Part shown: piece after piece, positions 10,974-62,699 of the stretch | How positions within the stretch are numbered: position 1 is the stretch's first letter | How the letters are laid out: each line of letters opens with the position of its first letter | Assembly: GCA_036172245.1 (NCBI GenBank) | Contig: JAYWIR010000025.1 | Coordinates: 2,356,001-2,420,000 of the forward strand | DNA: 64,000 nt | Origin: Raillietiella orientalis | Lineage: Eukaryota | Direction: 5' to 3' | Translations under genes and position numbers: made by a program | Notes under the pieces: model-generated | Databases searched by the model: none | Told to the model about the DNA's origin: nothing | The model's input: the letters and a program-made list of their open reading frames with translations, nothing else

Positions 10974-13900
10974 TCATATCAATGCTGGAAGGTAAAACTG
11001 CTGGGCAAATTCTTCTACTTTGTGTCTTAAGCATTCTACTTTTTCAGACAAATGACTCTCTTTCATCTTTGTACAAAAATCAACGAATTTGACTCCTGAT
11101 TCACTCTGAATTTCCTTTGCAAGTTGCAAGGCTGTTAATAACAAACTCAGTTAAAAAAAATTTTTAATCATTGAAAAAACCTAACCTTGTGAAATAAAAG
11201 AAGCGACTATTTTCATATCTTCTTCATTTAGTCCTCGTGTTGTCAAAGCAGGTGTTCCTAGGCGGATGCCACCTGGATTAAAGGCACTCTTGTCTCCTGG
11301 CACTGCAGTACTATTGTTCCAAGAATCCAGTATGAAATTTTTAGTCGCACCTGTATTTTTATTGCAGGCTATCGATATCTCTTCAAGAATTTTCTCAGCT
11401 TTGGCACCAGAAACACCATAAGGACGAAGATCAAGCCAAACTAAATGATTGTCTGTACCCCCTGTGACAAGTTTAAAACCCATATTCATTAATTCTTCAC
11501 TTAGCACCTTAGCATTAGAAACTATCTGAAAGAGACAAGAGTCAGAAAAATTATTTGAGAAAGTTTTTCTAAACAAAACCTGATGTCCATATTTTTTAAA
11601 GTCTGGTGTAGCAGCTTGTTTCAAAGCAACAGCAACAGCAGCAATAGCATTATTATGTGGCCCACCTTGCAGTCCCGGGAAAACAGCTTGATTAATGAGT
11701 GACTCAAGCTCATATGGTTTTCCTGTGCGATCACATATCCCTATAAATACACTTACTTCAAATTCGAAAATACATTCTCACTGTAATAAATTACAACAAA
11801 ATCTCATTTGACATGAATACCACTTGATAATGCAGATGAAAAAAAGCTTTTACTCTTAATTCCTTTCCGGATTTGTACAAATTTTGTGCAAAACTAGCAC
11901 ATTTTCTGATAACAAAAGCATTTATTCCCTTTAATTAATTTTTCATTAGCATTCATTTTATCTTGGGGCTTACTACAACAATGTTGCTGAGCTTGCCTGA
12001 AAAACAAATAGACAAACCTGAAGAGCACTTGTAAGGATTTAAGATGCCTATGAACTAGGGAAGTATTACTCGGAAATTTTTTTTAAGTGAAGTTTTCTCA
12101 CAAACCTTAGTTTCCTACAAAAAATTGCATAATAAAAGATTTTAAAAGTACTCAACTCAACACAGGGCAGACAACACAACTAAGTATGAATAAAGTAAAT
12201 ACAGACTTGGAGGTACAATGTCAATGTATAATAGTTATCAGTGACAGCAAACAAGAGAAATCAGAAAGAAAAGGATACGAAAAGGTATAAAAAAGCTCTT
12301 GTTTACAAACACATTTGCTTTCACAATTCAGAATAGTGTTCATATAAAAGTTGATTCCTAGCTCACTGTGTGAGCCACAAGTAAACAATAAGAAACACAA
12401 TTTTGAATATGGTTCTTACAAAGGTTCTAAAATCTTGGATGAGTCAATTCCATTTCATTCATAATTAACGTGATTTTCATTGAAAGACTATAGACATAAC
12501 TGTTCGTACAACCACACCTTTGCGAAAAAAAATCATTGCTGCTCTTGGTCCACGTAAACTTTTGTGTGTTGTTGTGGTGACAACATGTGCATGGTGAAAT
12601 GGAGATGGTGCTGCTCCAGCAGCTACTAATCCTGATACGTGTGCCATATCTGCCATCAAATAAGCTCCACAAGAATCTGCAATCTGACGGAAACGTGCAT
12701 AGTCCAAATTCCGTGGATAGCAGCTAACTCCTATTAGAATGTGAATGGATTTTCTTTTGCAATCTTACTAGCCTGCAATAATAACATTAGGAAGAAACAA
12801 CTTAGAATTCCGTGACAGCTGCTCATAATCAATCATTCCAGTCTGGATATCGATTTTATAAGGCATGGATTCAAAGAACACTGATGTGGCTGATACTTTC
12901 TTTTTGGCAGTCATAAATCCATGAGTCAAGTGTCCTCCATCAGGGAGGTCTAGCCCTACAAGCCGATAAAGTCAAAAATCAAAGAAAAATTACCCATTAT
13001 TCTTCCATGTGGTTTTGCCAAAGCAGTATAAACAGCAAAATTTGCAGGACTGCCTGAATAAGGTTGAACATTCACTCCCCAATTTTCAGGATCAAGAGAG
13101 AAAAGTTCTAATGCTCTATTCTGGCACAAAATTTCCATTTGATCAATGAACTGATTTCCGCCATAAAATCTTCATAAAAAGAACCATTTGCATTAGTCCA
13201 GTAAATTGCATAATACAAACATTCACAGAAAATAGTTTTTCAAAGTGTGATTGCCTAGCTATAAACAAACAAAATTGGTGTAACTGGTGTTTGAGCTCTT
13301 AAAACCAATTCAAATGCTACAACGTCAAAATGCATTATGTCTGTAACATCGCCTGTATCTTCTTATATCGTAATGACTTCTAATGCTCTCTATTATTTAA
13401 CTTTCCATTAAAGTATGTTAACTTCTCCCTGCCACGAAAGTAACAGAAATAATTTGAGATTGGTTATTAATTCACTAATCTTTTCAATTATTAAAATAAT
13501 CCATTATATTTATTTAATGGTTAAGGAAAATGCTATTCTGATAATTTCCTACTGACATGTTCCACTTTTCAATCTGGATGATTTCACATATCACAATTTA
13601 GAAACACATTTTGAATATTCAACTCTTTACTCCCTTTTATTAAACGAAATTTCGTCATTGCAGTGAAATTTTGTAGTCAATAATCTTTCTGCTGAGAATT
13701 TACGGGTTTGTGCCCGTATCCCCACTTCAACATGCACTTTGATCATTGTTTTTCAAAATTCTACTGAATCTTCCAAATTTTAGTGAACACTAGTAGCTGT
13801 CACCAAATCAAAGAATCCAATCTGTTCCACCTTCGAACGTGACAGATTGAGTTGTGTCAATATTTTCATGGTGAACATTGAAATTCACAATTGCTTTTAT

Positions 13901-15925: not shown

Positions 15926-17359
15926 TTTGTGAGATTTCCGGACAACAACAACAATCTATAAATACATTACATGCTAAGACAACTATAGAAAATCTTTTAA
16001 ATTATTAATTGTATGATTTGTTTTTACTTGTTATTACAGATACTAATGTGGTTTTCATTTGCGTTGTCTCCTAGTATGTTACGTAATTGTTAATAAAGAA
16101 AGAATTGAATAAGTATTATGAGTAGTATTTTTCCATTTATCCACATGCTTGGTTCAATGCTTCACACGGCTACTATTTTTTAAGCAAGCAGAGAATATTT
16201 GTACATGTCTAATTTTTCTCCTTTTTACACAGAAATCTCATATACGGGGCACAACTGTTCACATATACTAAAACTACGCCAAATCACGTAAACATTATAA
16301 TATAAAAATAAAATTCACGTAATGCCCAAACTGCAATTTTACGCTGATAGTAACAATAAAGGAATATCAATAGTATAATTCATATTTCCTTGGACTTTGC
16401 TTACGAGCAGGTTTTATCTATGCAGCATGTGAAATGGAGGAAGACAAAGTAAATTCACTGCAAACAAAACACTCCTTTGTAGACATAGTAATACAAAAAA
16501 GAAAAAAAGAGAGACTTTGTAACCAAGGGGCAACAGCTGTACCAAACGTCCCGCGCCTTTCCCGGATAGTCCCTTTCCAAAACGTAGGTCGCCACGGTAC
16601 GTCTCTTGTGCCAAACCTCTCATCTCTCAAGTTATAAGATTATGATAAAGAATTACATTTTTTGTTCAAAAATATAAATCCTTCATCATGAAGTGCATCG
16701 GAATGTACTGGTGGATATGGACTTATTGACTGATGTCACTCCAGAATGGTAATAATAAAGTATAATAAAGTTTAAAAGAAATAATAATAAAGCTTTTCCA
16801 AAAATAATCACTCAGTGTGTTCAGTAGCAGTGATCGAAACGAAGATAAAAAGTAAAACTCAAGTCAAAGTCGCAGCTTAATGGGGGATAAAAGCAGTGTT
16901 GAAGTAGACATGCAGTCTGTATACGTGAGTTCTGAAACTAGACTATGAACCTATCAAGAAAAAAGAAATAGAATTGGAGATTTAAGTACTCATCAATGTG
17001 CCGTGTAAATTCAGTGTTTTGAATCTTTGAATCTTTCTTAACTCCATAAGACAGCTCAAGTATTTCGTATCACTAAGACAATCTTGAAAATTATAAAAAT
17101 TTCTTCCAGAGCTCCTCGAGTCCCATGGCACTGTTTCCATGAGTACTTCATAGTTTTTTTCCTTAAAGAAAAATTCTTTTTTAAATCACACATTTATTGT
17201 TCTCGAATACACTTTCAATCAAATAATTACGCATATTCCATGTATGTCACCATCATATTCTGTGGCAAGATACATTTTTACGAACACTTTTATAAGTAAC
17301 ATTTCTGCTAGTTACATTTCCATATCAACATTATATTATTGTCTACTTCCAAGAGAAAG

Positions 17360-20300
17360 GGTCCTGTAATCCGGGATTCCGGAAGTGGCCAACATCAACG
17401 CTACTGCCAGGACGTCCTAATCAAGAACAGGTAACAGCCTGTGTTCTGATTAGGGTACGAGATGTTCGGGCACCGCGTGAGGGCTTGCCCAAGGGCACGG
17501 TGTTACCAGTGCGGCCAGCAGTGTCATTTTCTGAAGGCGTGTAACTAGCCGATGCTGTGTTACTTCTGTCGCTTGTCTGGACTTGCTAAAAAGGAGTGCC
17601 AGAGGTACGCGAACTGGAGGGAGGTGCAGGGGCTGTTGCCCATTCGGGAAGCGCCCGCGACAAAGGAGAAGCAGGCTCTTTTGAATGAGGAGACTGCCAC
17701 GATGGCAGCGCAGTTCACTGAGGTCAAGAGGAGGAAATGGAAGAGAAGAATGAGGCAGCAAGCCTAACAAGTCTCCGAAGAGCCAGCAAGAGTTGCCGTG
17801 TTGAGCGAGGAGTTGGAGCAAGTAGCGCAAACTGAAGAAGAGCTCGAAAAGTAGAGCAAAAAGTGCGATCAGTGGAGGAACTGCAAGACTCCCTTGAGCA
17901 CATCTGCGGCGTGGCGGTCTCAATCAACCAGCGCGTCCCCAATGGGCGCCACAGCTTCCCGCAGGGAATCGCTCTCGCTTGCTTCCTTGTGCACACTCTG
18001 TGAAGAGGCGACGACTCGGAGGGACCCCCCAACAGGAGGAGTCCGCTCCTTTGAACAACTGGAGAGGTGCCCGTAAGGGCTCCTGCTCCATCTTGAAACC
18101 GGAGGCGGTCCCCCGGTGACGGGGGTCCACTCTATGTTGCACACCGGAGGGGGAACTCCCCATTCCTTTATGCCTGGGAGGATCCGAAGGTCGACTCCCA
18201 TTGTTCCGGCCATCATCTGGAGGCCTCCGGCTTTATCCACCGCCGGGGCCACGCCCGAATGTCTCGGCCAACCAGTGCCGTTGCAGGAGAAACTCTGAAC
18301 CCAAACGACGCAGTGGCGTTAAGTTATCTGCCGAAGTATTCGAACCCGCGATGCATGGTGCCACGCGCGGAAGCCTTAACCACAAAGCCTCCGAGGCGTC
18401 CCCAATGAAGAACAACGGTTTGCTATGGAGGACAGACTGCTTGAAATCATAAAGAGTCAAGCGTGGAGTCCACGGGGTTGTCCTCCGCAACCTACAGTGA
18501 GCATCCAGACACTGATAGCAGCGACTACATCGAGTCCTAAAGCAACGTGGGTGACGAGAAAACCGGGAAGAGGAAGCTGATACAGTCTCCTAAGAAAAAG
18601 AAAAGCAAGAAGTGCGAGTACTCGAATCCCCGATGGCCACCTTCCTATCGACGGCCAGGAGCAGAAAGATCGCCTTCTGGATTGTTAACGGGTTGTGGAA
18701 CCAAGAGAAACGAGCCTGGCTTTTACGCAGAACATCGAACCTGATCACATAGTGTGCCTACAGGAAACCCACGATCTCGGTTACCAAGCCATCCTAGAGC
18801 TCGAGCGACTACTAGACGTCCAGCTGTTCCTGTTCGCGGGCCAGAAGAGAACCAAAGATGTGGCGATCCTCGTCAAGAACAACATCGCGCACACCGTCCT
18901 GGAGTCCTTTTCGTGGCCCGGCCGCATCGTCGGCGTTCGGATTCCCTGGTTCGGAAGCGCCCACCTGTTTCTGGTGAAAGTATACGGGCCGCATAGCGGC
19001 AAACAAGAAGCCATTGGGGCTCTGCTGTGAAACAAGGTCACGGCAAAGAACATTGTGATGGTCGTGGGAGAACGGAGCATGTAGGATCGCATCACCCAGT
19101 CCAAGGATGCTAGGGGAAGAACGGCCTATCAGCGGCTGTCCGAAGAGTACGGGCTGCTGTGGCCCATGGCGAGCCACAAGCCAATAGACTACGTCCTCCA
19201 CAGCCAGGACATCGCGAATTATGTGCAAGGCTTCCGGGACATCCCATTATTGCTCTCGGACCACCCCCTGACACAGTTCACGCCGCGAATGGAGAATCCT
19301 CGGAGGAAGGCAGGTGCAAGGGCTGCGCTCATCTGCATGCCCACCTGGTTCGAGACGCATCCCTTTCACCAGGAGCTCATCGAGGCGATTCTGCAGAACG
19401 CCACCATCCGCAGAGTTGCCGACAAGGACAGGTTGAAGCGGACGATTTATTTGTTCAGCAACCTGCAGTTCGGCGACAGGAAGATGAGAATGGAAGCTTA
19501 CCGGGAGCTCAACATCCACGACCATTCCTTCTCGAGGTACTGGCAGTAGTACGAGAGCCGGTAAGTTTTCAAGAACGTGAAAGGGGAAGTCGGTGTGCTG
19601 GAGAAAGACATCGCCACCAATGTCTTCTGCATCCAGTACGAAGATCAATTTTGGCACACGTCGGAAGGAATCGCGGAGGTTTTCCATCAACACTACGCCT
19701 CACACTTCTGACGTCAAGATCTGTGCCTGACTGAACAGGAGAACATCTTGCGCACCTGTATAAAACATTAAACATGGAGCAACAAGAAAGACTTCAAGAG
19801 GAAATCTCCGCCGAAGAAGTGAAGGGTGTTCGCGGGACTGCTCAAGCATGTGGAGGATGGTATACCGCCGATAGTGTTCCCATCTCGCACTATCAGCGGT
19901 ATCTGCACGCCTACCTGCGGTTGTTCCACGAGCTGGCTCTTCGCATCCAAGAAGAAGGAAGGCTCTCTCCATCGTTCCACGAGGGTAGGATGAGACTGCA
20001 GCCGAAGGAAGGAGACCTGATGAAGGTCACCTAATGGTGGTCCATCTCCATCCTGAACACGGATGCCAAGTGGTTGGTGAAGATTTGGACCAACTGCTTG
20101 AGCAAGACGATGCCATCAGTCGTTTCTCCGACACAGACGTGCGCGATGCCCGGACGCAGCATGTCGGCGAACGTGAAGTGTGCCCAGGCCACCATCGTTT
20201 ACTGCCGATACGTCGGCGAAAACCTGGTGCTGGATACAATCACCACACGCAACGTAAACCAAGTCTTACTTACAGTGAATTACCAAGAGCACGCAGAATG

Positions 20301-22680
20301 CCTTACGCACTTTTTTTTAATTGGTGCATCACCTTTTGCAACTTTACCGAAGACGACCTGAAAGATATCAAAGACTGGTGCAGATGCAACTGCTTCTTCG
20401 CATGCATAGGAAAAGAAACTTCAAGCACTGGCACGCCACACCTTCAGGGATATATGCAACTAAAGGAACCACGCACATTACCTGCCTTGAAGCGCACACC
20501 CTTCCAGAAGTGCCACCTAAAAAAAGCACGCGGTTCACCACGGAGCAACCTACGGTACTGCACAAAAGAAGATAAACAAGCATGGACATATGGAGCTATC
20601 CAAGAAATTAACGAACCAGCTACATACCAGGACCTGGTAAGCCAAAAATAATTAACAAGATCAAAAACCATGTCTCCACTAGATACTTCAACTCATAAAA
20701 GATGGCGCCGACGAACTCTTCATACTCAACAACCACACAACGTTTTATTCCAAAAACATCAATTTTGTAAAAGAATGCTTCCGCCTTACACGAAGCAGAG
20801 CACACCCCAACCGCCTCGCCAAACTTCAACTCAAGTCATGGCAAATGGACCTACTTAAAATCATACGCCTAAAACCTGAACTCAGAAAGATATACTGGTA
20901 CCATGACCCAGTAGGAGGCACAGGCAAAACAACCATGGCCAAATTCCTCTACTTGAAAAAGGGTGCCATATGCATGCACTCGTGTAAGAAGGCAGACGCG
21001 GTCCACATCTAATGTTCACTGGAGAAAACCTTTGACACCATGGACCACGGGATGCTCCTGAAGATCTTGCGGAAATTGGGCTTCCCAAGACACTTCATCC
21101 ACCTTGGGGACGCCTCCGCAGCACAAATGTTGTGGAAGGAAATTCTGGGGAAAATTAAAGAAGAGGCCATCAAGTACATTCGGGTCGACTTCAACATGAG
21201 GCGGAGGGCCACCTTGTGGAATAACGTTCTACTTCCCAAGGTGCTTTACGGAGCCACCTTCGGCAGAATCGACAAGAAGACGCAGGAGGAAATCGAAAAA
21301 CTGTAAAGGAAGATTTTTTGGAGAGAATTTAAGCCGAGGGTCAGGCTCGTACCATTGTGCCACCCTTGAGAGGAAGGTGGGACCGGAATGAAGCCGTTTG
21401 AACACCTTGTGGAAACCATAGACTGGCGGCAACTTTTGCATCTCACCGTGAAATGGGACCAGTGGCCTTTCTCAGAGCATAGAGCCTACTGGAAGCTGCT
21501 GAACAACTCGAAAGGTCTGATGTCTGCCCTGATGGGCTCCACTTGAGAGTGGGTGAAAGTCGATCTCACTTGGAAAAGGAAACAAGCACTAGTGAAGCAT
21601 CACCAATTCAAGATGGTGCCTAGGAGCAAAGAAATCTGGGATGAAGAACTGACCCTGGTGATACCCTACTTTGTCCCCGTTCCGAGGAAGACTTCCATGT
21701 AGATACACCAGAGGCAAAGATTGAGAATGTAGCATTGTGAGCAGTTCGTCAACAGAGGGAATCGCCACCAAGTGTGACAGCACGGACTACGTCGAGCCCG
21801 AAGCAACGTGGATGTTTCGCTTTAATAGAGAAATGAAAGGAAAGTTTCAGTTATAAAATCCGGGAGTTTTAAAAACATCTGTCACATCAAGAGGGCTTCT
21901 GATGACCAAGGCCAACATAAAAGAAGGAACATTGAAGAAATGTCAAGACGTCGCCGCCCTCGGAGCAGCTTCGAGCCGATATGGATGTTCACATGCAAAT
22001 ATGCAGATGGTTGGAAATGCACTTTGGAGGAGTGACCTTCCCCCGGACATGCAGGACGAGCTCTTATTGTTCTATCACAGAAGGATCCTGAGTGGTTCCT
22101 GACTTCAACACTGGACCGGGAAAATCCAAGACGGAGACTGCAAGGCGTGGAGCAGAAGAAACGCAGCTCTTCATATTCACTTGTCCCACGCTATGACTTG
22201 ATTAGCAGACGGTGAAGGCAATGACAGGCCTGCAGACAAGCAAATCGGAAATTATGGCGGGCTTGTTTCAGGGAAACGGAAACGCACCCCTGTGTAACCC
22301 GATGGTTCGAACGACGCTTGCCCTCTTCATCACAGCAATCGTGATAAGAAGGGCAAAGATTCCCACACCTCGAAGAGGAACAACTGCTTTAGAAATCTCG
22401 AAAGGACTCGTGCAGAAAAAGTTAGGAATGAGGAACTGTGGGAGGATCGCCGCCTGAACATAGCGTTACATGCTGAGGAAGATTGACGACTACGTTTAGG
22501 CAAAAAGAACAATCCTCTGAGCCCAAACTTCAAAAGATGCAGAAGTGTTAAAGTGAAAGTGACGTGAAGTGAGCAATGCAAAAACAGTGCAGTTGTTAGC
22601 AATGAAAACATTGAAAGGACTGAAAAGACTTGAAGTTTTTTGTTAAAAGTTAAAAGTATGCTTTAATAAATTCATCCCAC
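17360..22680 (+). mobile_element. Near full-length but decayed Tx1/L1-clade non-LTR retrotransposon (ORF1 knuckles, APE endonuclease, partial RT, C-terminal knuckle), interrupted by a viral Rep insertion
   Basis: ORF1 CYQCGQQCHFLKAC and CYFCRLSGLAKKEC (~17500-17600). APE motifs IVCLQETH, VAILVK, VYGP, IDYVL, SDH (18690-19265). RT N-terminal SISILNTDAK...QTCAMPGRSM (20040-20165), resuming as EKTFDTMDH...LGFP (21020-21090). C-terminal Cys/His remnant at ~22140 and AATAAA at ~22665. Confidence 0.88.
20298..21012 (+). CDS. rep: Endogenous CRESS-DNA virus Rep (copy A), spliced join(20298-20636, 20683-21012), 222 aa, open but truncated after Walker A
   Basis: HUH motif I WCITFCN, motif II TPHLQGY, motif III YCTK. 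Removing the 46-nt GTAAGC...CACTAG intron keeps the frame open through LKSWQ...RKIYWYHDPVGGTGKTTMAK (SF3 Walker A) to a TAA at the junction with the LINE. Confidence 0.9.
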
Positions 22681-26442: not shown

Positions 26443-28039
26443 ATGGAGCTAATGCAAAAACCTATATTTTCATCAACGATATCACTATTAAGGAGGAGTT
26501 CTGGGAAAACATTTTGTTTAATTAAAAGAAATGGAATTTCATCAACTCCTAGTTATTTGTCTGATGGTGAAAAGCGAACAAAAGTGGATGCAGATCAAGT
26601 AAACCAAGATTCACCAACATCAAAAAAGGTAATGGAATTATGATAATATAGCAATATCCTGAATAAATCTTAATAAAACTTGTCACCAGAAATAAGTAAG
26701 TTTTGATGTATGGGCAGAGTAATTTTCAGAAATATTGTTGTAGTTTTGGTATTCTTAGAAGTATTTATGTCGATGTTTTTATTTTTGATTGTGGCTGTAA
26801 TTACATTTGTATCATATTTTAATAGCTTATTAGTCAAGTGAAGTTATGTGATATTTGTGTACAAAGTATTTGATCTCTGATTTATTATTTAATTTGAAGC
26901 CAACGGATACATGTGAAAAGCCCTCATCTTCAGGAATAACTCTACCATCTTCAAAAATGAAAAATCAAAGAAAATTATTGAAAGATTCCACAAATTCATC
27001 AGATTCATCACAAGCAAATGGTGATTTGTTAGAGTTGTTTCAAGTTTGATTATTTTATTTATGTCATTTCACTAATTTCTAGTTTGTTCTCTCCTTTCCA
27101 TTTTTATTTTTTCTTAACTTTGGGCATTAATTTCACATATTATGCCAGATGTTGAAAAAGCTATTGAAAAAATTGTTACACACGTTGAAAATGAAAATGA
27201 TAAGAAAAAAATGAAAACAGAACTCCTTGATCAACTGGCACAGCACTCTAGCACCAAAGTTAATCTCAGGTAACCTAAAAATAAAAATGCAAAGGCCAGG
27301 TTGGTCATTTTGTTTAAGTGAATTGTTTTCTACAATGAAAATAGATGTATCCAAAGAGTCATCGAAAATTGAAGATCAGTTGCCATTTAGGCAACCCGTA
27401 AAGCTATTTTCTGAAGGCAGCAGTACGAGAGAAAATATTAGCAGTTTTCGGTAATTTGCAGATTTGTTATTGTGATGAATGCATAATATTACAGAGCACC
27501 TGCAATGCCTCAGAAAGCTGGCTTGTTTGCTGCCAAACCATTAGGTGTATTTTCTTTTGGTCCAGACATACAAAAAACTGAACATTCTAATTGTCCTTTG
27601 TGGGATGATATACATTTGAAAGAGCTGCAACTGATTGCAACTCATTCTCCCGCCAATGCATTTGAAGAGCAGATTTTATGGACAGAGCAGGGAAAACTTT
27701 GGAAGTTTCCTATTGACAATGAACAGGGTAGGGTTATGATTTAATATTTTTACCTAGTGTTTTGGTCTTTGATACTACATGTATCTGATCTGACTAATTT
27801 GTCTGTTGACAGATATAGGTGAAGAGAAGAATGTTAGTTTTCATGAACATATATTTTTGGAAAAACATCTAGAACCTTGGTGCCCTAAAGGACCTATCAG
27901 GCATTTTATGCACTTAGTGTGTGTAGGTCTATCAAAAAATCCATACATGAGTTTGAAAAAAAAAAAAGAACATATCTTTTGGTATAGAGATTATTTTAGC
28001 AAAAAGCAGGAGCTCCTGAAATCTTTAGATACTTCGTGA
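26443..28039 (+). CDS. MRPS31: Mitochondrial 28S ribosomal protein S31; exons approx. 26443-26628, 26900-27020, 27149-27269, 27319-27450, 27495-27727, 27813-28039
   Basis: Conserved C-terminus [24 protein letters not shown] / [36 protein letters not shown]. Basic, Ser-rich N-terminus fits a mitochondrial presequence. GT-AG introns with compatible phases. The 5' exons are less certain. Confidence 0.9.
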
Positions 28040-29996
28040 ACAAATAAAGAGGATTCTTATGTAATAATGCATAGTAATATTATTGTTTTGTATGAGGGGC
28101 AAGTCAAGATTTCAGTTTAATTTGCATCACCTGGATGCATCTCCATAAGATAAAGCAAATGTTGAAAAGTCTACTCTATTTTCAATCATTTGGTATGCAA
28201 ACAGTACAGCTTTTGGGGGATTGGGGGGGGGGTGCATGTTACTGTTTCTGCTTATGAATTTAATAAGTATTTGTAAAGAGGGTCTCATTTATACAAAATT
28301 TAAAAGTTCATTACTAAATGTTCAGTCTCTATGACCAAATGATTTGGAAGCTTTCTTGCAGCAGTTGGGTGTTAAATGTTTATTAGCACAGTGAATTACA
28401 AAGTAAATTTTGCCATTGATTTCAGAAGGAAATGTAGGATGATCAAGAGTGAAGTTCCTATTGATGAATATTGAAAATCTCTTAACTGCACTTAGAAAGA
28501 AACTGAAAGGTAAAAACAAAACCAACTGTTTGGATGTATGCTACATGTTCCATTGTTAACCAGAAAGATTTGAAATATTTAATTGTCAAATGAGTAGGAA
28601 CTAATCATTCCTCTTGTGGATGTTACCTTGATTTTTGTTTTCTTTGAAAATGAGTTTGGTCTTTGAAAATGATGTTTTTACTAAGCTTAGATTAAGCTTA
28701 GCTAAGATTCTAGCTTATGAGGTAATTTGAAATTAAGGCAGTGGGCTTCTAGTCCCTTGCCTATGTAAACATTAAACTATTTTGCACCTTATGAAAATAG
28801 ATGAAGGGGTTATTTATGTTTTAGGGATTGTTTACTTTACTTTCTTGATTGTTTGCTAATTCAAATTCAAAAATTTGAATTTGAATAAGTAACAATTGCA
28901 GATCTAATTTGTGTTTTGCCTTTGGCACAGTACAGATTACATCTATCCTCTTTTTTTTTTTTTTCGTTTTAAACAGATCATTTCTTCAATCGGTCCATGG
29001 TACTTCCAGGGTGAGTTGTAATTTTTGCAAGAGGAGAGTTTTGTAGTAATCTTTCACAAATAAAAGTACCCACTCATTGTATTAGACAGCTTAGATGTTG
29101 CTTTTCAGAATAAAAAAAAATGCAGTATTTTATGTATTAAATACTTTTGCTATAGATATTAGTTTTCTTTTATGTATATAGTTTTATTTTTGATCAATCA
29201 AGTAGTTCTTGTTTTCCAGAGTGAAAGCAATAAAAGCACATGTTCTTTTAAATTGGATAATAAAAAAGGAAGCTTTAAGCATATTATTAGGATATTTCGC
29301 AAAAATATGCCAAATAATTTTGCATGTGTGTGACATAAAGGAAACCATCAAAAAATGTGCATGCAACCAAGTAATTAATACTGTCTGATGTCTGGCATTC
29401 TGAAGAACATATGTGCTCTCCATGAGATTTAATTTCTAGTTCTTATATATATGAGAAAACATTGACAAAAATAATCAGATTACACTTTGATACATTTGCA
29501 AGAAAGAGTATAATATTTAAGAAATATACCTTTCATTATGATTATACAGTTTTGAAGAAAAAAAATACTGACTCACAAACAGAAAAATCTACAATTTTTG
29601 GCATACAATGGAAAACTTGAACATTTAATTAGTTTGACCGAAGAAATGATATTCTGAAAACTAAGCTAATTATTCAGGTTGAACATAACATTTTTTATCC
29701 ATGTATGTAAAAAAGTAAACTGACATAAAATAATTTGACCACATGAAATTTTGAATCGTAATCAATGACTTCAGTTTTAGACTGCTTACATTAATGTAAT
29801 TTCATTAAATGCGAAAGCACTAAAAAAGGAAAAAAATAAGGGAAGGGTTACTTCACCTTTCCAGTGCAATTATTTTGTACAAAAAAATAACTTGCTTGCA
29901 AAATGCCTGACATATCAAAATGTACAACACAAACAAACTCCTGGAAATGAGCAAATAGGTCCGTCTAAATATGCTTTCTATCTTTCGAATTATACT

Positions 29997-30025
29997 GCAC
30001 GACACTTGTATGACAAGTGTCGTGC
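29997..30025 (+). promoter_or_regulatory. Putative degenerate rolling-circle origin stem-loop of the endogenous CRESS virus
   Basis: GCACGACACTT-gtatgac-AAGTGTCGTGC is a perfect 11-bp stem. TTGTATGAC matches the TAGTATTAC nonanucleotide at 7/9 positions and ends exactly at the 3' stem arm. Confidence 0.55.
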
Positions 30026-30059
30026 TTCCAGTAATTGCTTCCAGTTTTTTAGTTTATTA

Positions 30060-30800
30060 ATTCTTTTCTTTCCTTGTTTGACGTCCATGTCCTTTGACAT
30101 CTACAATCTTGGCCACCTCTAAAGTCATCCGTTCTCTGTCCTACCGGCCTCACGAAAAACCGTAGACTCTTTACTCCGAAACATCTTCTCCAGCTTCCAC
30201 GATTTTCGTCATAAAACTCCAACGCTTCCGTTATATTTTCATAAGTCTTTCCCTAATAAAAAGAGTACAACAATTCCGTCACCCAAGGGGCATCGGATGC
30301 AATCAAATTCCTAAATGATACCTTGAAACCTATGGTTGCGGTCCTGCCCCAACGACACCACTCCAGACCAACCCAGCCTCAGAGGTTCTATCTTGGATCT
30401 TACTCCCACGAGCTTCGCCTCATAAAAAAAAAACTTGCTCATCTCTTCCAGATTGCAATTCAAAACTGACGTCTTCAGCGGGTCTATAAAACTCTGTTCT
30501 ATGTGCATCCAACTGCACTGGTACGCTCCCCTTGTGGCAAAAACGTACACTGGCATACCTATACGCCTTTACTATCTGATCCCTTTCCACAGTCCTTACT
30601 AAACCGTATTTCCAATTAAACTTATTCCTAAAAACGCGATGACCGCTCCTTCGTCTTCTATCTACATACTTCCGGTACGACCTCACGCTGATCGTCTTTC
30701 GACGTTTTCCACCTCCGCCTGTCACCCTTTTCCGGGAGCGAACCGCCGTAGCCTCCTGCCCTCGGTAGACTTGACTACTACCTGCTGGCTACAGTCGATC
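30060..30800 (-). pseudogene. cap: Putative CRESS-DNA virus capsid protein gene (frameshifted)
   Basis: Arg/Lys-rich N-terminal arm (RSRKRVTGGGGKRRKTISVRSYRKYVDRRRRSGHRVFRNKF), as is typical of ssDNA virus capsids. Oriented divergently from rep, with minus-strand AATAAA at ~30053-30058. Confidence 0.65.
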
Positions 30801-31111
30801 CATTACCATTATCTTAAACCATTCTCGATCCCTCCCCCTCCCTCCCGTTTATCCTTTCACGTTCCACAGATTATCATTACAGTCCTTCACATCTGCTTCT
30901 GCGCAGTCTACACATTCTTTCACACTTTCTGCCCAGCAAAGCACTTATACGGTACGGACATCCGCTCCTTATCACTGCTGCTGATCACGCAGACTGTTTC
31001 ACCAAACAGAATTCCCTGGAAAGAAACGCGCGTGGCTCTGCCAGATGGGTAACACTCCCTATAGATACTCTTTCACTCACCGCGTTTTCCAGACCACTAC
31101 TTGCAATTATC

Positions 31112-32053
31112 ATGCCTTACGCTGCTTACACAAATTGGTGCTTTACTGTGAATACTCGGATTCTGAAACCATCAAAACCTGGGCTAGAGGACGTCCGTCC
31201 TTCATCATCGCCGCAAAAGAGGAAACAGAAGCTACCGGCACGCCTCACCTCCAAGGCTATATGCAATTGCATGAACCTTTCCCGTTGCTGCTACTGCAAA
31301 GACCGCCTTTTGCAAGAGCTCACCTCGGGCACGCTAAAGGCTCCGCAGAATCTAACTTGGCATCTTGCAGGAAGCAAGATCCACATCCCTGGACATTCGG
31401 ATCACTCGACACAAACCCTACAGAAGATAATCACGAGAAACACGTAAGCTCTCTTTTCACATTTCCTTTATTTTCCTTCAGATACTTCAACTCATACAAT
31501 CCGGAAAGTCGGGGCAGTTTGTATTTGAAAACCATACGCGCTTTTATGCGCGTAACGTACACTTTATCAAGGAGTCTTTTGGCCTCTACAGAGCTAAGCA
31601 CCCCTAACCCAATGCAAAACCTCCGTCTTCGAGAATAGCAGCTTGAGATTCTCGATCGTAGAGCAGCCAAACCTCCACATCCCAGAGAAATTTACTGGGT
31701 CAAAGAAGAACGGGGGAACGGGGGCAAAACCTTTGCCAAATAGCTTTTCATCAAAAGGAATGCCATCTACCTACAAAGCTGTAAAAAGGACGATGATGCA
31801 CATCCGTACAACGGGGAACGCATCATCATCGTTGACTTCACCAGAGATGCCGGGGAGATAGTTCAGTACGGTTTCATCGAGTCTCAAAAATGGTATCGTT
31901 TTTGACCCAAAGTACCAAGTCAGCATAAAATACTTCCACATTCCTCACGTCGTAGTAATGGCCAATTGGAAACCATCAGAAATTGTTTTAAAATGCTACT
32001 ATTTACTATTTCACCATGATAGAACTTGGGATATCCGCTTTCTTGGAAAATAA
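31112..32053 (+). pseudogene. rep: Endogenous CRESS-DNA virus Rep (copy B), full length, with intron 31444-31481 and several frameshifts and stops
   Basis: MPYAAYTNWCFTVN (motif I), TGTPHLQGYMQL (II), motif III with the Tyr lost (ASCRK), REIYWVKEERGNGGKT (Walker A), IIIVDFTR (Walker B), KNGIVFDPKY, PHVVVMAN (motif C), DRTW. Stop at 32051-32053 followed by AATAAA. The helicase half resembles nanovirus/alphasatellite-type Reps. Confidence 0.9.
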
Positions 32054-32151
32054 GAATAAAATTCGTCAAAGTTATTCAACTTGAAAGTATATCTACATAC
32101 TATTCAATTAAATACAAAATATCAAAGCAGTCTTGTGAACCAAATAAGCTT

Positions 32152-33119
32152 TTATTGTTCCAAATCTTGTTGAAATACACAAACAGATGGGCGTAGTTTA
32201 CATTCATCTAATTCAAGATCGTCTAAACTTTGAAACAGTGACTCATCTACTTCAATTTCACCACCCTCTAAAATGTCAATAAGATGCATATTCAAGGGTT
32301 TGGTTGCAATTACGAAAGCCAAATTAGACATACCAAAATCCTCCAAAAACTTAAGATCTGAATTATCTAACTGATGGTTTTGAAGAAAGAGTTGTTTTCC
32401 AGTCATTTTTTTAGCAGAGTTGCTATCTTTATGTGTTTTATTTTCTGCTAATCTTTCTAGATCAAACTGTAGTTTCCATTTATTGAAAGACTCAATAGTA
32501 ACTCTTGTGCCTTCAAAATGCTTCTACAAAATTACTAATGCAACCAACATTTATGTACAGGGAACCTTTTCTGCCTCATCCAATTCCTCACGGCGTTTAA
32601 CTTCCAGTAATTCAAGATCCAAGATCTTTTTTTCATACAAGTCATTTAAAAATTCTTGGGCAGCTGCTACCAAAGTATAGATCATGACTGTCCCTACATT
32701 ATCATGAGCCTAAGTATTAAAGCAAGCCAGCTTAATTAATGTTCTTAAATTAACAAACATTAATGGAAAAAAGATTTCAAACCTGGTTATGAAGGCAGCT
32801 CAAAATATGCTCGGCATCTTCATCATTAATGTTTTCCGATTTGAAAATTTCAATTCTGGGTGGCTTATCAGGGTATTCTTCATTGAATTCAAATGATAGC
32901 ACCAAAGAAAGCCTCTCTATTTGTGTGTTCTGGTTAAATTCTGAGCTAAACAGGGTTATTTTAAATTGATGCCAAGGATTTACATTACTAACTAAAATTT
33001 GAAATGGCTCTGTAGCAAAAGTATGACTGATATTCAAAAATATTACTTTCTAATTCTTGTGAATATATTGCTTGCAAAGCTTCAATTTCATTCAATTGTT
33101 CTTCTTTGTAATTAACCAT
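32152..33119 (-). CDS. RWDD1: RWD domain-containing protein 1; exons 33047-33119, 32783-32991, 32566-32709, 32334-32523, 32152-32267
   Basis: MVNYKEEQLNEIEALQAIY, EEYPDKPP, GTVMIYTLVAAAQEFL, FEGTRVTIESFNKWKLQFD, MTGKQLF, EVDESLFQSLDDLELDE. GT-AG introns. The extreme C-terminus and the exon-2 acceptor are uncertain. Confidence 0.92.
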
Positions 33120-36100
33120 GATGCATTAACTACCAAACCCAAGTCATCCTTCTATGTAGTTCAATATCTTATAAAAAGTCTTTGATTCTCTCTGACCAAA
33201 GAACCACTAAACTTTAACACATGCCAAATAAACATGATCACAGCATAAAGATGAACCAAATGGTTCTGTTATTCTCTAGTTTACTGAATCTATATGTAAA
33301 ATCTTTGATACATTCACAGTTAAAGCTGGGAAAACACTTTCAGTACTATAAATTTCAATACCTATTATTTTATTTCAAAATGCAGATGTTGTCATACATT
33401 AAGTACCTCCATACAGTTTTTCCAAACTACTTTTAGTATTCCTGCAAAGAAAATCCACAAAAATACCAAATAAATACATATCTACGTTGTGCAGGATTTA
33501 ATCTGTTTTAGCTCTCAACATGGTTCACACAAATTATTTAACACATTCAACAATCAGTACAGATTTATGAGACCAAACATGATAATCATATGAATTCTAA
33601 TACAGTTTTCCGAACTGTAGTAGTATGCTAACTGCAAACGAATTTTATTTTATTTTTCTGAGCAATTGAAGTTCACATTTTTTCCAGGGTGCTTTTAGTG
33701 TCTAGTATTGAATCTGGAAAAATTGATCTTATAGGCAGGATAAGTTCATCATCATCATCTTTAACATATACAATCTTTAACATAACAAATTTCAATTATA
33801 AGATTAAAGTGAATGAGTTATCTAGGAGAAAAAAACCATGCTCTAGAGTAGTATTTTCATTACCTCATGGAAATTCAAGACCAGAAGTGTTCACAAAATT
33901 GTTACATGGAACTACAATAGAAACAAAATATTAAACTCTTTCAGTCTCAGAAAGATGACCAGAATTCCCCTTTTAGGTATTTTTTTTGTAGATCAATGTT
34001 TCTATTATTTCTTATAAATTTTGTTCTTTTTTTTTGAAAACAGAAACCATTTAGAATGTGCAAACCCAGCAATAATGATCAAGAAAAGCATCACTTCTAC
34101 AGGTAAGGACTAATGATTACTTCAGTGCTTCTGGAACTGTAAAGTGAAAAATCAAAAAAGAATTGCAAAAGGTCTGGATACTATGTGCTGAAACTGAACA
34201 TGAATTTTGAATCAAATCAAGAAAACAAGAAATAACAGTGAAGTCTACTCATCATTTATTCAAGAGGAAAAATGAGAGGGAAATATTTTAATAGCTCAAG
34301 AAGCAGTTATCCCTTACTACTGATGTTTCACATGAAATATGTTTGTTCTATCTGGTTTCATATTCTTGATGATGTCTCTTATATAGTGAAATATGATACT
34401 GTTCAACAACAAATTATTTTGAGTGCTGCATCCTCCGTGATCCTTCAAATCATGCAGCAGCTTACTATAAAGTGCTTCATTTGGAGAAAACAAGAGATAA
34501 TTGACAGTGGTAGGACTAATCTGCAGCACCATGTTATACCATTTACAGCCTAAGTGGGGATTGTAGATTTAAATTGAACTACCAGATGTCTGAGAAACTT
34601 ATGGTTTGCAAAAACACAATGCAAGAAAACTGATGAACACGTTTTTTGGGAAATATTTTAAACCTTCTTAAAATGATAAAGAAAGGCATGTTTCTAATGG
34701 TTGTCAAAAAATCAACACTTCAAAGGGCCCAATTTAGCATTTAGTTGCATGCAATGGATTTAACTATGTGGATATGCAATTCTATCCAATTTGGCACATA
34801 TCAACAAGGAATCAAAATGAAGTCTTACATTTGCAGATCAAATATATGAGCACCAACTACAGATTACAACTGAATTGGCAAAATAATTACAATTTCATGA
34901 TGTGGTAATGTAATGCATAGAAGCTCAAGCAATGATCACTGAAAATTAACAACTACTTGCAAAGGAAATCCTATAGAAACAGGTGGCTGTGCTCACATTT
35001 TTCAAACACTGACTACACTGCTTGAGCATATGACATCCATATGACATCGAAACTGTTTTGATCAGGGTACAAACCAAAGATCAGTCCTGATGATGGAGTA
35101 ATGATTAAATTTAAAAGCTCAGATCATAGTATGGCAAGATTGTGAGGTCAGAAAACCGACAACCGAACTAGTTACAGACTTACTCCGACTAGCAACACTT
35201 AGTTTTCTAAACATGAGAAAGTTTTCGAACGCTGGAAGCACTACAAACCTGCTGAAATGCACGCGCAGGACTAATTATTCAACACGGCTGTTTGATAAGT
35301 GATAAAATATAATCGCATTTAAATGTCGAACACAAATTCCCCAGATAAATTAAGGCCCGGATAAAATATACAGTTTATTTCTTTCCTTGAATGAATTCAA
35401 CTGGGAACACAGTGACAGCAGGCTGCGAAAACAATCTGAACATTTACAAAACTGAACCACGCATCTACATGAATGAGACATTATTTGAAAAAAGTACAAG
35501 TATTCCAATGGTATGCATGGAATAAATAAATAGGAAAGGAAGCAAGTATGAGTAAAGCACGAGAAATAAATGCAACCTAAATATTGATTTGGAAGGCAAA
35601 ATCACTCACTGCTCAAAGGAAGTCTTGCAAAAGATAGAGGGATGGAAAAAAGATAGATGCGTGTTTGCAACCTTGGAAAATGATTTTCTTTTCTTTTTTT
35701 AATCTACAAAGAGCAAGTTGAAGACACAAAGAATTTGAAAAACTGGTCGACGGATGAAGTTCTCAGAAAGGTCAGAGCACACATTACGGCTAGAACAAAA
35801 ACAACCGACTCGTGTTCGTGAATTGTAATAAGGATTCTAGGTAGCATACTAAATCGAGCAATAGTATTCTGAAGTATGAACAAAAAATAGGTAAACTATT
35901 CAAAGCACTGGGTAATAATGGGGAAATACACAAGATATTTCCGTATGAATCTCACTTTCTTAATACTTCATTAGACAATGATTGGATTGCTATTATAAGG
36001 AATGATTATGCTATGAAAAGAAAAATTTTGAGGAAAAGAATGTTTCATAAAAATTCAGTGGCATATGAAAAAAATTAAGGCAAAACTCTCAAGTTCAATA

Positions 36101-44661: not shown

Positions 44662-47600
44662 TCATTGAGAAAGGATGTTTCTAATACCAGTGAAATCTTG
44701 CAGGCAATATTTCAACCAATGTTGATAGCGCACAGCTTGACTGAACAGCTGAGATAACGAATTCTGCTTTAAAATCTCTTCAACCTTCTTTAGTTCATCT
44801 TGAACTAGTTGTTCTTTGGTTCCATCTTCGAATTTTGGACGCTTATTAAAAATACAAACACCATTCTTTGATGAACTTTGACAAAGTCTTAACTGAGTGA
44901 AAACAAATCGGCGATGATACCACAGAGCTTCATGGTCTGGAAATTGCTGTAACAGTTTATAATTGCAATCCAATTCTTCATCATATAAGCTGACTGCATT
45001 TTCACTTTGCTGTGCCATTAATTTCAATAGGTACTGCCGATACCGTAAAGCACTGTGATCTGATACTTGCTGACAAATCCAAATGTTGGATTGGTTTAAT
45101 TCTTCTTCATACATATGCTTACAAGCGTTCTGTTGCAATAGCCACTGGCGATGGGACCAAGCAGCATAATTATTAGGATATCTTCTGGCAGCAAGAGTGC
45201 AGATATCAAGTTCTTGTTTCAGTGTTTCCTTGCGAGATAACAGTAGAAGTGCATAATGACTCCAAACCCATCTAGAAATCAACTCACTAGTAATAATTTT
45301 GACAACAATCATTACCTCTTTTGACAATATGGCTGAGTGGCTTTAGGGTTCCTAGTTAATACAAGATCAGTAAGGTGTAATTCCCAGAAAGGATTAATGT
45401 GACCATCCAAAAGCATCTCCTTATGAATATTCCAAACTGTGCTGATCTCTGGATTGAGTAAAATAAGAATAGTTGTCATGTGTTGCAATTGTTCCGGATC
45501 TGCAGTTGGAAATAGGAGATGAAAAACAAAAATGAAAACAAAAATCTGAGATATTTTAAAACAAAACTACATGAAAGTCTTCAGAAAATGATCCTCTAAT
45601 CATCTCTACATACTCTACATAATTAGCACACATACACAAGTTTAGTAGCATTATCCGTTCATTTTTTTCATTGCATTCTCCGGTTATAAACATTAGAACT
45701 GATAGAATTGTGAGCACATGAGCAGAAAACAGTCACAACCAGCATTACAGATATAGATATACAAGAAACTACAAAAACAATGCATAATGAACAAGATCTG
45801 AATTAAGATACAGTATTTCAATTACTGCTTTCCAGAATATTGGGTCCCAATAACTTTTAATGAGGGCTTTTGAATCAACAAGTTTCACGGATCTGAAGTT
45901 AAGACTGATTAGTGATGTGTTGTGTGAAAGAAATTTGGTACAATATCACCTCTTCAAAGAACTTTTGCATTAATTCTAAGATTTGATATCCATTAATGCT
46001 TATCAACCTTTCTATCTTAGCCCATTTCTTTGTTCAAAAGTAATTTCAGCTTTCCATTAAGTCATTTAAATATTCAGTTTTTGCACTTTGTTATTTCTGT
46101 AGAACTACTTTTAAATTTTCATAGACCTGCCTTTACTCGGATATTTTTCCAATTAAATGCATTCATAGATTTACTTAATGACAACATAGCATCATAAATA
46201 TGGGTGGACATTCACCCATAGTAAATAAGGGATTGGTTTTCTTCACTTTTTGGCATGGATTATCATTAAAACAACTGTATTTTTACCATCTGTACTTTGA
46301 ACATATCCTTTCTTAGGAAGAAATCCATAAGCAAAGAGAAGCCTTGTTTGTTTGTTTTGTTCATTTTCGCAATTCGAAAGTACTTATTTATCCGGATTCC
46401 ATCGTGCATTACTTTTTCTCACACTTTTAATTGGTGTGAATAAGTTGAATTCACATGCATGCATGTGAATTATGACTGAAACAAATGACTAAATTTCCAA
46501 AGCTTTCATTTCCACGAACTTTTTATGAGTTGGCATTTCTTAATGTACAAATCTTAGCATTTGTAATTTTCATTTGAAAATTTCCATTAAAGAAACATTC
46601 TTTTTGTGAATTCCTTTCGGAAGCATTTGAAAAATTTTGGCACAGAATGAATTACATTGGTCATGTACCTTATTCAGGAGTGTTTAATGCATGGAAATAT
46701 TTAGATATAGTAGTAACTTTCGAATAGTACGTTCTTAATGTACAATGCAATAAATGTGGGACAATTTAGAATCTTGTGACTTCATGCATGGTTTTAGCAA
46801 TGCAGGTCCCTAAGGAGAATATCATTGGGAAATTATCGCTTATGTATTATATTTTCGGATAGAGGCAACAATTAATGTCCACTTCATCAACTTTGATAAA
46901 TAACCCTTTGTAAGTACTCAAGTATCAATTGTCGTGCTATGATCAATTTTCATGGGAAAAAATAAAATGTAGTGTACCAATACATTTGTTTGAGCTGAAA
47001 TGCAGACAGGAGCTTTCAGTACATAATACTTTCCGTAACAATGATTCCTTTATTGTTCTTGTGTTTGTTTTTTAAACAGTTATGAATGGTACTTATCACT
47101 CATATCCTTTTCCTTATTTTTCATGAGAAAATAAATTTGATGAAATTTCTCTTTTCCCCTTTAAAAGATCATCATCTGAGAAACGAGGTATCAAACTATC
47201 TTAATCAAAGCTCGGTTTGGATTCATAGTTTTCATCTTTATGAATATTATCTGTTATTGTGTGCAGTTATTGCAATCAGTAATTCAGGAGTGATACTAAC
47301 TATTAAATAGTCCGAAATCATCATACTTATTTGGGAGAAACATATCTGAAACATTACCAGAATTCTCATAACAATGTAATAAAAGCATTAGCAATGAAAG
47401 AATTTATTCTATGGCTTTCAAAGACAATTTCTGTATGCTAGAAGTTTTGACAAAATGATCATGACTTTATATTTTGACTGACCTACCCCACTTCCCTTCT
47501 CTTCTTAGATGCATAGTCAGTTTGTATGCATACAGAAATACAAGTTCCACACACCAAGATTCTAATGCCAATTTGTTGTCAACATGAACAACTGGACTTC

Positions 47601-49959: not shown

Positions 49960-50140
49960 CAAGTGAAAGCATTTCATGCCGACGGAGTTCCACTTCACCG
50001 CACGCTGCTGCGCCCGCGAATCCTCCGGCCCGTCCGCCGAAGGGCTCCCGCGGGCGCCCCGGCGGCGCCCACCAACCACTCGTCCACACTTCCTTCCGGT
50101 GGGCTCCTCCTTCCAGCTGCACACGCCAAGTGCACAACCT
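49960..50140 (-). mobile_element. GC-rich 3' fragment of an RLE-type non-LTR retrotransposon
   Basis: Minus-strand SVDEWLVGAAGA and QQRAVKWNS resemble the VGALG...IKWSR tail of Utopia/NeSL-like endonucleases. Weak match. Confidence 0.35.
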
Positions 50141-52783: not shown

Positions 52784-53388
52784 TACGGTGGACCCGCGTA
52801 TAACGAAATTATGCGCTCCGGGTGATACGCATCCACGTTACACGAGCCCTATGGGTTTTGAGATAGATACGATAGCATTTATAAAAGATATGCATGCATC
52901 TCAAAAGGCGTGTAACAGTAGAGTATTTATTTCCACCTGAAACAAAAACAAACAAATTAAAGGTGTTTATTTCTCATTTAACTTGAAGTTAAAAAAAATT
53001 ACAACAACAACTTAAATTCGAAAGTTCAGCCATGTCTTTCTCCTTTTTACTCAGAGAGTCAAGCTCTTCTGATCTGTGGCTTTTCCTCATCCTCTTTCGG
53101 CACAACCAAACACCTCAAAGACTTTCCTCATGGAGGCTTCGCAATGACCTCGAACTGAGGTTGTGCTTAGAGGTTTGTTGATGTTCAATCACTTTAAACT
53201 TCAGTTCTGTAATTCTCGTTGTTCAAAGATCACATGGTCGTTTTCTTTTAAAAACAACTCAATTGAGACTCCACCGCAAAGTGAAAACGCGTCCGCAGTA
53301 TTTTGACAGGGATGGTTTGCACGGCGCCACACGATGACCCGCCGTTTTTTTTCGTTAACACGAATCCGCGTTATACGGAGATGTGCTG
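52784..53388. mobile_element. Possible pogo/Tigger-like DNA transposon remnant
   Basis: Left end TA-CGGTGGACCCGCGTATAACGAA and the inverted right end (rc CAGCACATCTCCGTATAACGCGG) share CGTATAACG, resembling pogo-type terminal inverted repeats. Degenerate. Confidence 0.3.
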
Positions 53389-55254: not shown

Positions 55255-55594
55255 ATGGTTGGTACTCGATGCGTAGATATCTCTGGATGCTCTTATGACG
55301 GCCACGATCGTCCTGCCCCTAGGGGCTTTCGTGTGCGGCTCGGGCGTGCCAAGTTTGGCAGTGACTTCATTGTTCCTCGGATGCCAGGCTCGGACCGTTG
55401 GGGAAACAGTGGGCAATTTGAACAGACTTTTTGACTGTTTCTGCCCGCGCAACTCTGAAGGAGTCTTGACGGTTCTCAGAGGGGATGGCAACATCAGCCT
55501 GGGAGTCGTCATAGACAACAAGGTCGGGTCGGAAGGAGGAGTTTGAATTGTCCACTTGTTGGTCGGCTTGAAGTCTGAGCCAGTAAGGGCTCAA
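55255..55594 (-). mobile_element. C-terminal restriction-like endonuclease fragment of a Utopia/NeSL-like site-specific non-LTR retrotransposon
   Basis: RPDLVVYD...DVAIPSENRQDSFRVARAETVKK fits the PD-(D/E)xK RLE pattern RPD..D...PFEN...AR..K..KY, and the fragment ends VIRASRDIY. Confidence 0.7.
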
Positions 55595-59942: not shown

Positions 59943-59949
59943 TTAATGA

Positions 59950-62690: not shown

Positions 62691-62699
62691 CATTTGTCT

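Follow-up and report, generated by a model that had tools for sequence, protein, structure and literature searches.

Location and layout of the element

A stretch of 64,000 nucleotides from Raillietiella orientalis (contig JAYWIR010000025.1 of assembly GCA_036172245.1, positions 2,356,001 to 2,420,000 of the forward strand; hereafter the window, numbered from its first letter) carries a 2,064-bp insert at 29997–32060, between the genes MRPS31 and RWDD1. The insert contains a gene for a replication-associated protein (rep) of the kind found in viruses whose single-stranded DNA is circular and encodes a Rep (CRESS-DNA viruses) and, in the opposite orientation, a gene with features of a capsid gene (cap-like gene). 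A second, separate rep fragment is located 10 kb away, at 20298–21012 on the plus strand. The rep of the insert and this fragment are referred to as copy 1 and copy 2, respectively.

The identity of the two neighbouring genes, which the original prediction had named from the bare letters, was borne out by Pfam profiles. The terminal exons of MRPS31 on the plus strand (27487–27741 and 27794–28036) matched MRP-S31 with 81.5 and 136.3 bits, reaching profile position 303 of 304, and RWDD1 on the minus strand (32155–33125) matched DFRP_C and RWD. The two genes are convergent. The insert occupies part of the 4.1-kb spacer separating their 3' ends, its right edge being about 90 bp from the stop codon of RWDD1. 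The G+C content rises to 0.459 and 0.460 in 30001–32000, compared to 0.283 and 0.323 in the adjoining kilobases. Viral sequence is contiguous with host genes on both sides and is disabled in both of its genes, the state by which an endogenous viral element is recognized.

Along the plus strand, the element consists of a hairpin (29997–30025), two 10-nt direct repeats (30023–30045), the broken cap-like gene on the minus strand (30049–30803), a region of 308 bp that separates the two start codons (30804–31111), and rep on the plus strand, with exon 1 at 31112–31443, a 38-nt intron at 31444–31481, and exon 2 at 31482–32053. An AATAAA signal is present 3' of each gene (30058–30053, minus strand; 32055–32060, plus strand). 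The element is, therefore, ambisense, with two genes diverging from the 308-bp region, and its layout and total length fit those of the Circoviridae (~1.7–2.1 kb). The stem-loop, the two AATAAA signals, the Arg-rich minus-strand gene, a region of ~300 bp, rep, and an overall length of ~2.06 kb had all been pointed out previously, and our coordinates for each of them agree.

No terminal inverted repeats or flanking direct repeats were found at 29997–32060. An exact 12-nt direct repeat is present at 30659–30670, inside the cap-like gene, and at 32090–32101, 30 nt past the poly(A) signal of rep; this pair is probably accidental, about 0.3 such pairs being expected by chance in 3.1 kb according to a rough estimate. 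Judged by its GC skew (cap half, –0.37; rep half, –0.16), the plus strand is C-rich throughout despite the opposite coding strands of the two genes. The C-richness might have been left behind by strand-biased mutation in a single-stranded virus.

The rep gene

The rep gene extends from the ATG at 31112 to the stop codon at 32051–32053. It had been described as a full rep, which holds for its extent; the gene itself is broken, its frame changing close to 31160, 31597, and 31885 and in-frame stops being present at 31636–31638 and 31741–31743. The frame piece 31141–31446 matched the Pfam family Viral_Rep (PF02407) with a score of 27.0 bits (cut-off, 26; E = 5e-6). Relatives were represented by the Reps of five viral contigs of 2.0–2.15 kb, which were found via the better-preserved copy 2. 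Used as tblastn queries, these Reps aligned to 31201–31845 and 31868–31978, that is, to both the endonuclease and the helicase parts, with a combined E value of 1e-12 to 1e-13. Their helicase portions cover 31627–31845 and 31868–31978, including Walker A, Walker B, and motif C.

Single-frame pieces of the rep translation were also compared by phmmer with 268 open reading frames (ORFs) of 82 related contigs. Pieces B, D, E, and F matched 77, 16, 7, and 48 of these ORFs, respectively, while the 41-residue piece C matched none. The Pfam profile RNA_helicase gave no match on the copy 1 rep fragments. The C-terminal residues of the gene product still fit the C-terminal motif of the relatives.

Reps of rolling-circle type are recognized by motif I, motif II (HxQ), and motif III, which contains the catalytic tyrosine in YxxK. 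Copy 1 has kept motifs I and II, now in different frames, and has a serine at the position of the catalytic tyrosine in motif III; all three motifs are present in copy 2. The state of the motifs in copy 1 is consistent with decay. Judged from its sequence, the rep gene is unambiguously of the CRESS-DNA type, with a predicted HUH endonuclease domain in exon 1 and a linker followed by a predicted superfamily 3 (SF3)-type helicase in exon 2.

Our searches for relatives of rep were word- or pattern-based and not exhaustive, and within this scope the closest sequences outside the window were distant: the best identities were 45%, in a search that returned 12 Reps on contigs of 1.6–4.2 kb, and 43% and 30% in two others. 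A word-based protein search with a piece of copy 1 rep revealed no relative, nor did a search of IMG/VR with exon 2 of copy 2. A metagenome scan for closer relatives of rep returned two loci (30% identity; a 21-residue match).

The second rep copy and its surroundings

Copy 2 is the better preserved of the two. Its exon 1 (20298–20636) comprises 113 open codons and matched Viral_Rep with 49.6 bits over profile positions 3–82 of 82; it also matched solved circovirus Rep domains with 43–56 bits. Exon 2 (20683–21009) comprises 109 open codons and reaches through Walker A, and the copy, a truncated rep, is cut off at 21010. No cap-like sequence was found next to copy 2.

The two copies match each other with E = 8e-24. 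Their amino-acid identity is 46.7% across 92 residues of exon 1 and 50% across the initial 42 residues of exon 2. A quick maximum-likelihood tree of the endonuclease domain, with 85 rows and 123 columns, placed them as sisters on a stem of 0.90, with a Shimodaira–Hasegawa-like approximate likelihood ratio test value of 93, which is below the star threshold of the tool. The end branch of copy 1 measured 1.3 and that of copy 2 only 0.17. The copies represent either separate integrations of related viruses or a case in which copy 2 has been kept by selection, since a duplication within the host at such divergence would not leave 222 codons open in an unselected sequence. On our reading, the virus lineage entered this genome at least twice.

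Copy 2 is surrounded by a G+C-rich block at approximately 17000–22300 (0.43–0.57). Within this block, the stretch 18689–19732, translated with X at stops, gave a borderline match to Exo_endo_phos (24.4 bits vs. a cut-off of 24.5). In one frame, motifs that by eye resemble those of reverse transcriptases flank the rep fragment on both sides, as though a retroelement of the kind lacking long terminal repeats had received rep as an insertion. An assignment of the flanks of copy 2 to a reverse transcriptase was not confirmed by Pfam, solved structures, protein search, or the ESM Atlas, and only the borderline endonuclease-like match stands. Comparison of the flanking block with the other blocks of the window revealed no similarity.

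An intron in rep

The segment 31444–31481 of copy 1 is located between the endonuclease and helicase parts of rep. It begins with GTAAGC, is pyrimidine-rich, and ends with AG. Excision of these 38 nt joins the frame of exon 1 to that of exon 2 exactly, in phase 0. The corresponding segment of copy 2 (20637–20682) is 46 nt long, shares the GTAAGC donor, ends in an AG acceptor, and lies at the identical codon boundary. It contains in-frame stops and is all that interrupts 222 open codons. When the two copies are aligned, they agree fully in the donor hexamer and in the 15 bases past the acceptor, while the interiors of the two segments are unalignable. The two lengths differ modulo 3 (38 = 3n+2, 46 = 3n+1), and each restores the frame of its own copy.

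Taken from these sequence features, there is strong evidence that the segment is a real spliceosomal intron of the virus, because the donor and the boundary are shared while the interiors cannot be aligned, because each length restores the frame of its own copy, and because the segment is the only break in copy 2. The same intron was not found in relatives. The Reps of six contigs seemed to be split; these apparent splits were traced to terminal redundancy of the contigs and provide no evidence on the intron either way.

Host introns nearby are of similar length: 54, 48, and 54 nt in an SHMT gene (10900–12100, minus strand; Pfam SHMT, 183.6 bits) and ~86 nt in MRPS31 (within 27380–28100, plus strand). 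The viral intron thus belongs to the size class of the host introns that we read, which range from 48 to ~86 nt. Being common to two diverged copies and of host size, the intron would be an independent indication that a host nucleus of this kind expressed the virus. As a feature, an intron in Rep is not new, since the parts of the literature cited here already report it for other CRESS groups: four geminivirus genera, genomoviruses, and some Circoviridae (10.1101/687855), with putative introns in ORFs of several cycloviruses (PMC8622408).

The minus-strand gene

The cap-like gene runs from the ATG at 30803–30801 to the stop codon at 30051–30049 and comprises about 250 codons in three frame stretches; its poly(A) signal overlaps the final codons. 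The frame changes at a run of ten A (30424–30433) and again between 30378 and ~30340, and in-frame stops are present at 30791–30789 and 30255–30253. The N-terminal arm of the product is basic, with R or K at 16 of 40 positions. Among 53 candidate capsids of the relatives, the median was 18 R or K in the first 50 residues. Their lengths are 178–500 residues, a range that includes the size of the cap-like gene.

The longest open piece of the gene comprises 122 codons on the purine-rich strand; of 2000 dinucleotide shuffles, 1.25% attained this length (P = 0.0125). If no more than two frame switches are allowed, a path through the gene meets only two stops (P = 0.008; 0.8% of 500 shuffles).

A number of results speak against a capsid gene. 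A two-stop path can likewise be drawn through the cap region on its antisense strand, which weakens the path statistic. With the 122-residue piece or all pieces as queries, no match for the cap-like frames was found in Pfam, and neither a pattern scan of IMG/VR nor a HMMER search of 1.84 billion representative proteins revealed a relative of the minus-strand product; the ESM Atlas search with this product returned nothing as well. Comparison of the cap frames by phmmer with the same 268 ORFs of the 82 related contigs gave no match at E values up to 10. Profiles of ten capsid clusters, built from the 53 candidates and run against 72 six-frame pieces, produced nothing better than E = 1.2 in the cap frames. 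The best two profile matches (E = 0.004 and 0.008) fell in frames other than cap and were taken as noise. Structure prediction, which might have disclosed a jelly-roll fold, was carried out with AlphaFold2 in single-sequence mode for two single-frame pieces, of 122 residues and, at the C-terminal end, 109 residues. The mean predicted local distance difference test (pLDDT) values were 35.5 and 47.7, respectively, too low for a fold to be read. The 109-residue model, in which one stop was read as X, consists mostly of strands and is untrustworthy at its pLDDT of 47.7.

The lack of a capsid relative is only weak evidence against a capsid, because even among the 82 relatives the candidate capsids form 19 clusters, none of which detects another at E = 1e-5. 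The layout, the size, the basic arm, the rep-like composition, the rep-like decay, and the poly(A) signal led us to regard the minus-strand gene as a likely capsid gene. Of the divergent capsid originally proposed, the place, size, basic arm, residual open frames, and poly(A) signal could be verified; a relative and a usable fold could not be provided.

An alternative explanation is that only the rep half is viral, and that 30049–30803 is a spacer of the virus without coding function, or unrelated DNA that entered along with rep, the open frames and the basic start being accidents of its composition. The absence of a homologue and of a usable fold for any piece of the minus-strand half would be accounted for in this way, as would the two-stop path on the antisense strand of the cap region and the fact that the pyrimidine-rich plus strand holds an even longer stop-free frame (149 codons, 30603–31052). 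The missing matches are, however, to be expected in view of the mutually undetected capsid clusters of the relatives. Moreover, the G+C content of the minus-strand half equals that of rep and is unlike that of the flanks, and open pieces as long as the observed one seldom arise by chance on the stop-prone purine-rich strand. The length, the divergent orientation, the 308-bp spacing, the Arg/Lys-rich start, and the AATAAA at the end all match the two-gene genomes of the relatives. We consider a non-viral or non-coding minus-strand half unlikely and retain the capsid gene as the preferred assignment.

The hairpin and the question of the origin

The hairpin at the left end of the element has 13-bp arms (29997–30009 and 30013–30025) that are 100% complementary and a 3-nt loop. 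Folded as DNA, it has a z value of –7.0, with none of 200 shuffles folding equally well, and it is the only strong stem in 29900–32160. When the inner 4 bp are opened, a 9-bp stem with an 11-nt loop results, the apex of which (30006–30014) fits the circovirus nonanucleotide at seven of nine positions. The chance of such a match landing in the loop was roughly estimated at a few percent.

The hairpin is followed on the plus strand by two iteron-like 10-nt direct repeats (30023–30032 and 30036–30045), the first of which begins within the right arm. Their 8-nt core is found 10 times across the window; the two copies at this place are 13 nt apart. This neighbouring sequence is better evidence for an origin than the match in the loop, since repeats in this position are enriched at the origins of the relatives: direct repeats of at least 10 nt were found beside 4 of 56 origin hairpins, compared to 2 of 560 random places, and those of at least 7 nt were found within 45 nt of 29 of the 56 hairpins, compared to 63 of 560 random places.

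Other observations count against an origin at this site. Matches to the nonanucleotide with two mismatches number 207 in the 64-kb window. The canonical nonanucleotide is absent from the hairpin loop, and the exact NANTATTAC motif does not occur anywhere in the element. A canonical hairpin was found in 56 of 66 relatives with sizes of 1.7–2.7 kb, and in at least 34 of these 56 it is located within 200 nt upstream of the rep ORF start. In our element, the corresponding 308-bp region lacks both a canonical nonanucleotide and any stem of at least 7 bp, and its folding z value is –2.1. The Circoviridae are characterized by an origin in the form of a NAGTATTAC stem-loop between the starts of rep and cap; 30804–31111 contains only two armless matches to this sequence, each with two mismatches. 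Loss of a start-side origin by decay is possible.

The apex was also compared with the smacovirus-type NAGTNTTAC nonanucleotide, which it fits at seven of nine positions, ending in GAC and not in TAC; the position of the hairpin fits. In a closed circle, the hairpin would lie directly after the end of rep. From our analysis, we lean towards the view that the hairpin and the two 10-nt repeats formed the replication origin, placed between the gene ends as in the smacovirus layout. Alternatively, the hairpin could be a viral 3' structure or a product of the joining. A Helitron-like reading of the hairpin was considered by eye and rejected, as neither a large Rep-helicase gene nor a terminal signature was seen.

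It had been suggested that the viral genome was linearized near its origin. The hairpin, followed by two 10-nt repeats as at the origins of relatives, makes this suggestion plausible; the missing canonical nonanucleotide and the location of the hairpin upstream of rep in at least 34 of the 56 relatives count against it. The circle appears to have been opened beside the hairpin and not at the Rep nick site in the loop, because the hairpin is intact. The break would thus have been located in the short stretch that separates the ends of the two genes, part of which may be missing.

Comparison with known viruses and endogenous elements

As the original prediction held, most described endogenous copies of such viruses contain rep only: 302 Rep-like vs. 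3 capsid-like sequences are reported in one survey (PMC3198968), and just four endogenous cases with both genes are given in another account (PMC6372831). Similar to the endogenous circoviral elements (CVe) of vertebrates, the element described here is a decayed germline copy of a single-stranded DNA virus situated between host genes, and it shares with a few of these cases the retention of more than rep (PMC6372831). In contrast to CVe, the surrounding host genes have introns of 48 to ~86 nt, rep reaches no more than 45% identity with any sequence found and possesses a 38-nt intron, and the cap-like gene has no detectable relative (PMC6372831). Full-length CVe genomes occur in tandem in cyprinid fish, and LINE-1-borne copies occur in carnivores (PMC6372831); unlike the cyprinid genomes, our element is a single unit. 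The Rep-like sequences of invertebrates and protists resemble the present case in that several copies are found per genome and some of them are open, as is copy 2; they differ in that the rep described here lies within a genome-sized unit (PMC3198968).

Among free viruses, the Circoviridae (Circovirus and Cyclovirus) share with the element a size of ~2 kb, divergent rep and cap (cap-like here), HUH motifs, and an SF3-type helicase (PMC8622408), and the closest matches among solved structures were the circovirus Rep domains aligned to copy 2. The family origin, however, is located between the start codons (PMC8622408), while the sole strong hairpin of our element lies between the gene ends. The ambisense 'type IV' layout of the Smacoviridae, with divergent genes and a predicted stem-loop close to the rep 3' end, is similar to that of the element, and so is the Walker A of the G-N-x-G-K-[ST] kind (PMC6453971). 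Smacoviruses differ in motif II (H-W/F-Q vs. H-L-Q here), motif III (Y-E/V-x-K vs. Y-C-T-K in copy 2), the end of the nonanucleotide (TTAC vs. GAC at the apex here), and genome size (2.5–2.8 kb vs. 2,064 bp) (PMC6453971). Since the element lacks the origin typical of the Circoviridae and does not match the Rep motifs given for smacoviruses (PMC6453971), we file it as the remnant of an unclassified CRESS-DNA virus. It adds to the known examples a fairly complete one that comes from a divergent lineage, contains an intron, and has a sister copy in its vicinity.

Interpretation and inferred history

Both genes of the element are disabled, with five frame changes and four premature stops in total in addition to the loss of the catalytic tyrosine. 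The density of decay is similar in rep and in the cap-like gene, as would be expected if both were inactivated together. We regard it as highly probable that the element is a near-complete endogenous CRESS virus genome, decayed and without function. The germline integration of a CRESS-type, genome-sized, ambisense unit that had been predicted is corroborated by the length of 2,064 bp, the divergent genes, and the matches of rep. The ends given for the insert are provisional.

Besides the possibility discussed above that only the rep half is viral, the element could be a copy of a host-resident mobile element with a captured rep, such as a rep-bearing transposon or part of a retroelement, and not a direct viral integration. 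Copy 2 does lie in a G+C-rich block bearing the borderline endonuclease-like stretch, and both LINE-1-borne Rep-derived sequences and geminivirus-like transposons are on record in the cited parts of PMC6372831 and PMC3198968. The element itself, however, corresponds to a virus genome in size and in its two-gene layout, shows neither terminal inverted repeats nor flanking direct repeats, and is not adjoined by retroelement sequence. The retained intron argues against a processed copy, and the two copies in the window share nothing but a rep that has diverged to the identities given above. We consider descent from a mobile element very improbable. That the assembly joined a contaminating free virus to host DNA is hardly credible: the sharp change in composition is the sole point in favour of such an artefact, while five frame changes and four premature stops would not be expected in a replicating virus, and host sequence runs on at both sides within one window.

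If the element is an endogenous virus genome, its history could be pictured as follows. A CRESS virus would have undergone replication in a germline cell nucleus of the host lineage, where a double-stranded viral form broke beside the hairpin. The broken form would then have been joined into a chromosomal break between the two convergent genes, presumably by host end-joining, a mechanism suggested by the lack of terminal and target-site repeats. Both genes would subsequently have gained disabling changes at similar density.

In a broader and more tentative scenario, which we find possible but doubtful, the element and copy 2 derive from a CRESS lineage that is unsampled as a free virus, carries a micro-intron of host size, and invaded the germline repeatedly, and copy 2 may be a selected host gene. 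If so, the host-sized micro-intron in rep would tie this CRESS lineage directly to this host group. To our knowledge, most CRESS-DNA viruses are known only from metagenomes, with the host unknown. A genome-sized fossil in a host chromosome provides a link to a host and, once an empty site is found in relatives, a minimum age. The element also offers a rare view of what such a virus carries besides rep. The overall understanding of endogenous circovirus-like elements is already well established and remains unchanged.

Other features of the window

Two further G+C-rich blocks, at 4400–8400 and 50000–64000, contain long open frames on both strands. A weak match to zf-RVT (E = 0.015) at 4654–5322 on the minus strand was the sole hit in these blocks, and no DNA or protein similarity was detected between them and the block at 17–22 kb. 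A gene with prenyltransferase alpha-repeats is present at 44662–45342 on the minus strand.

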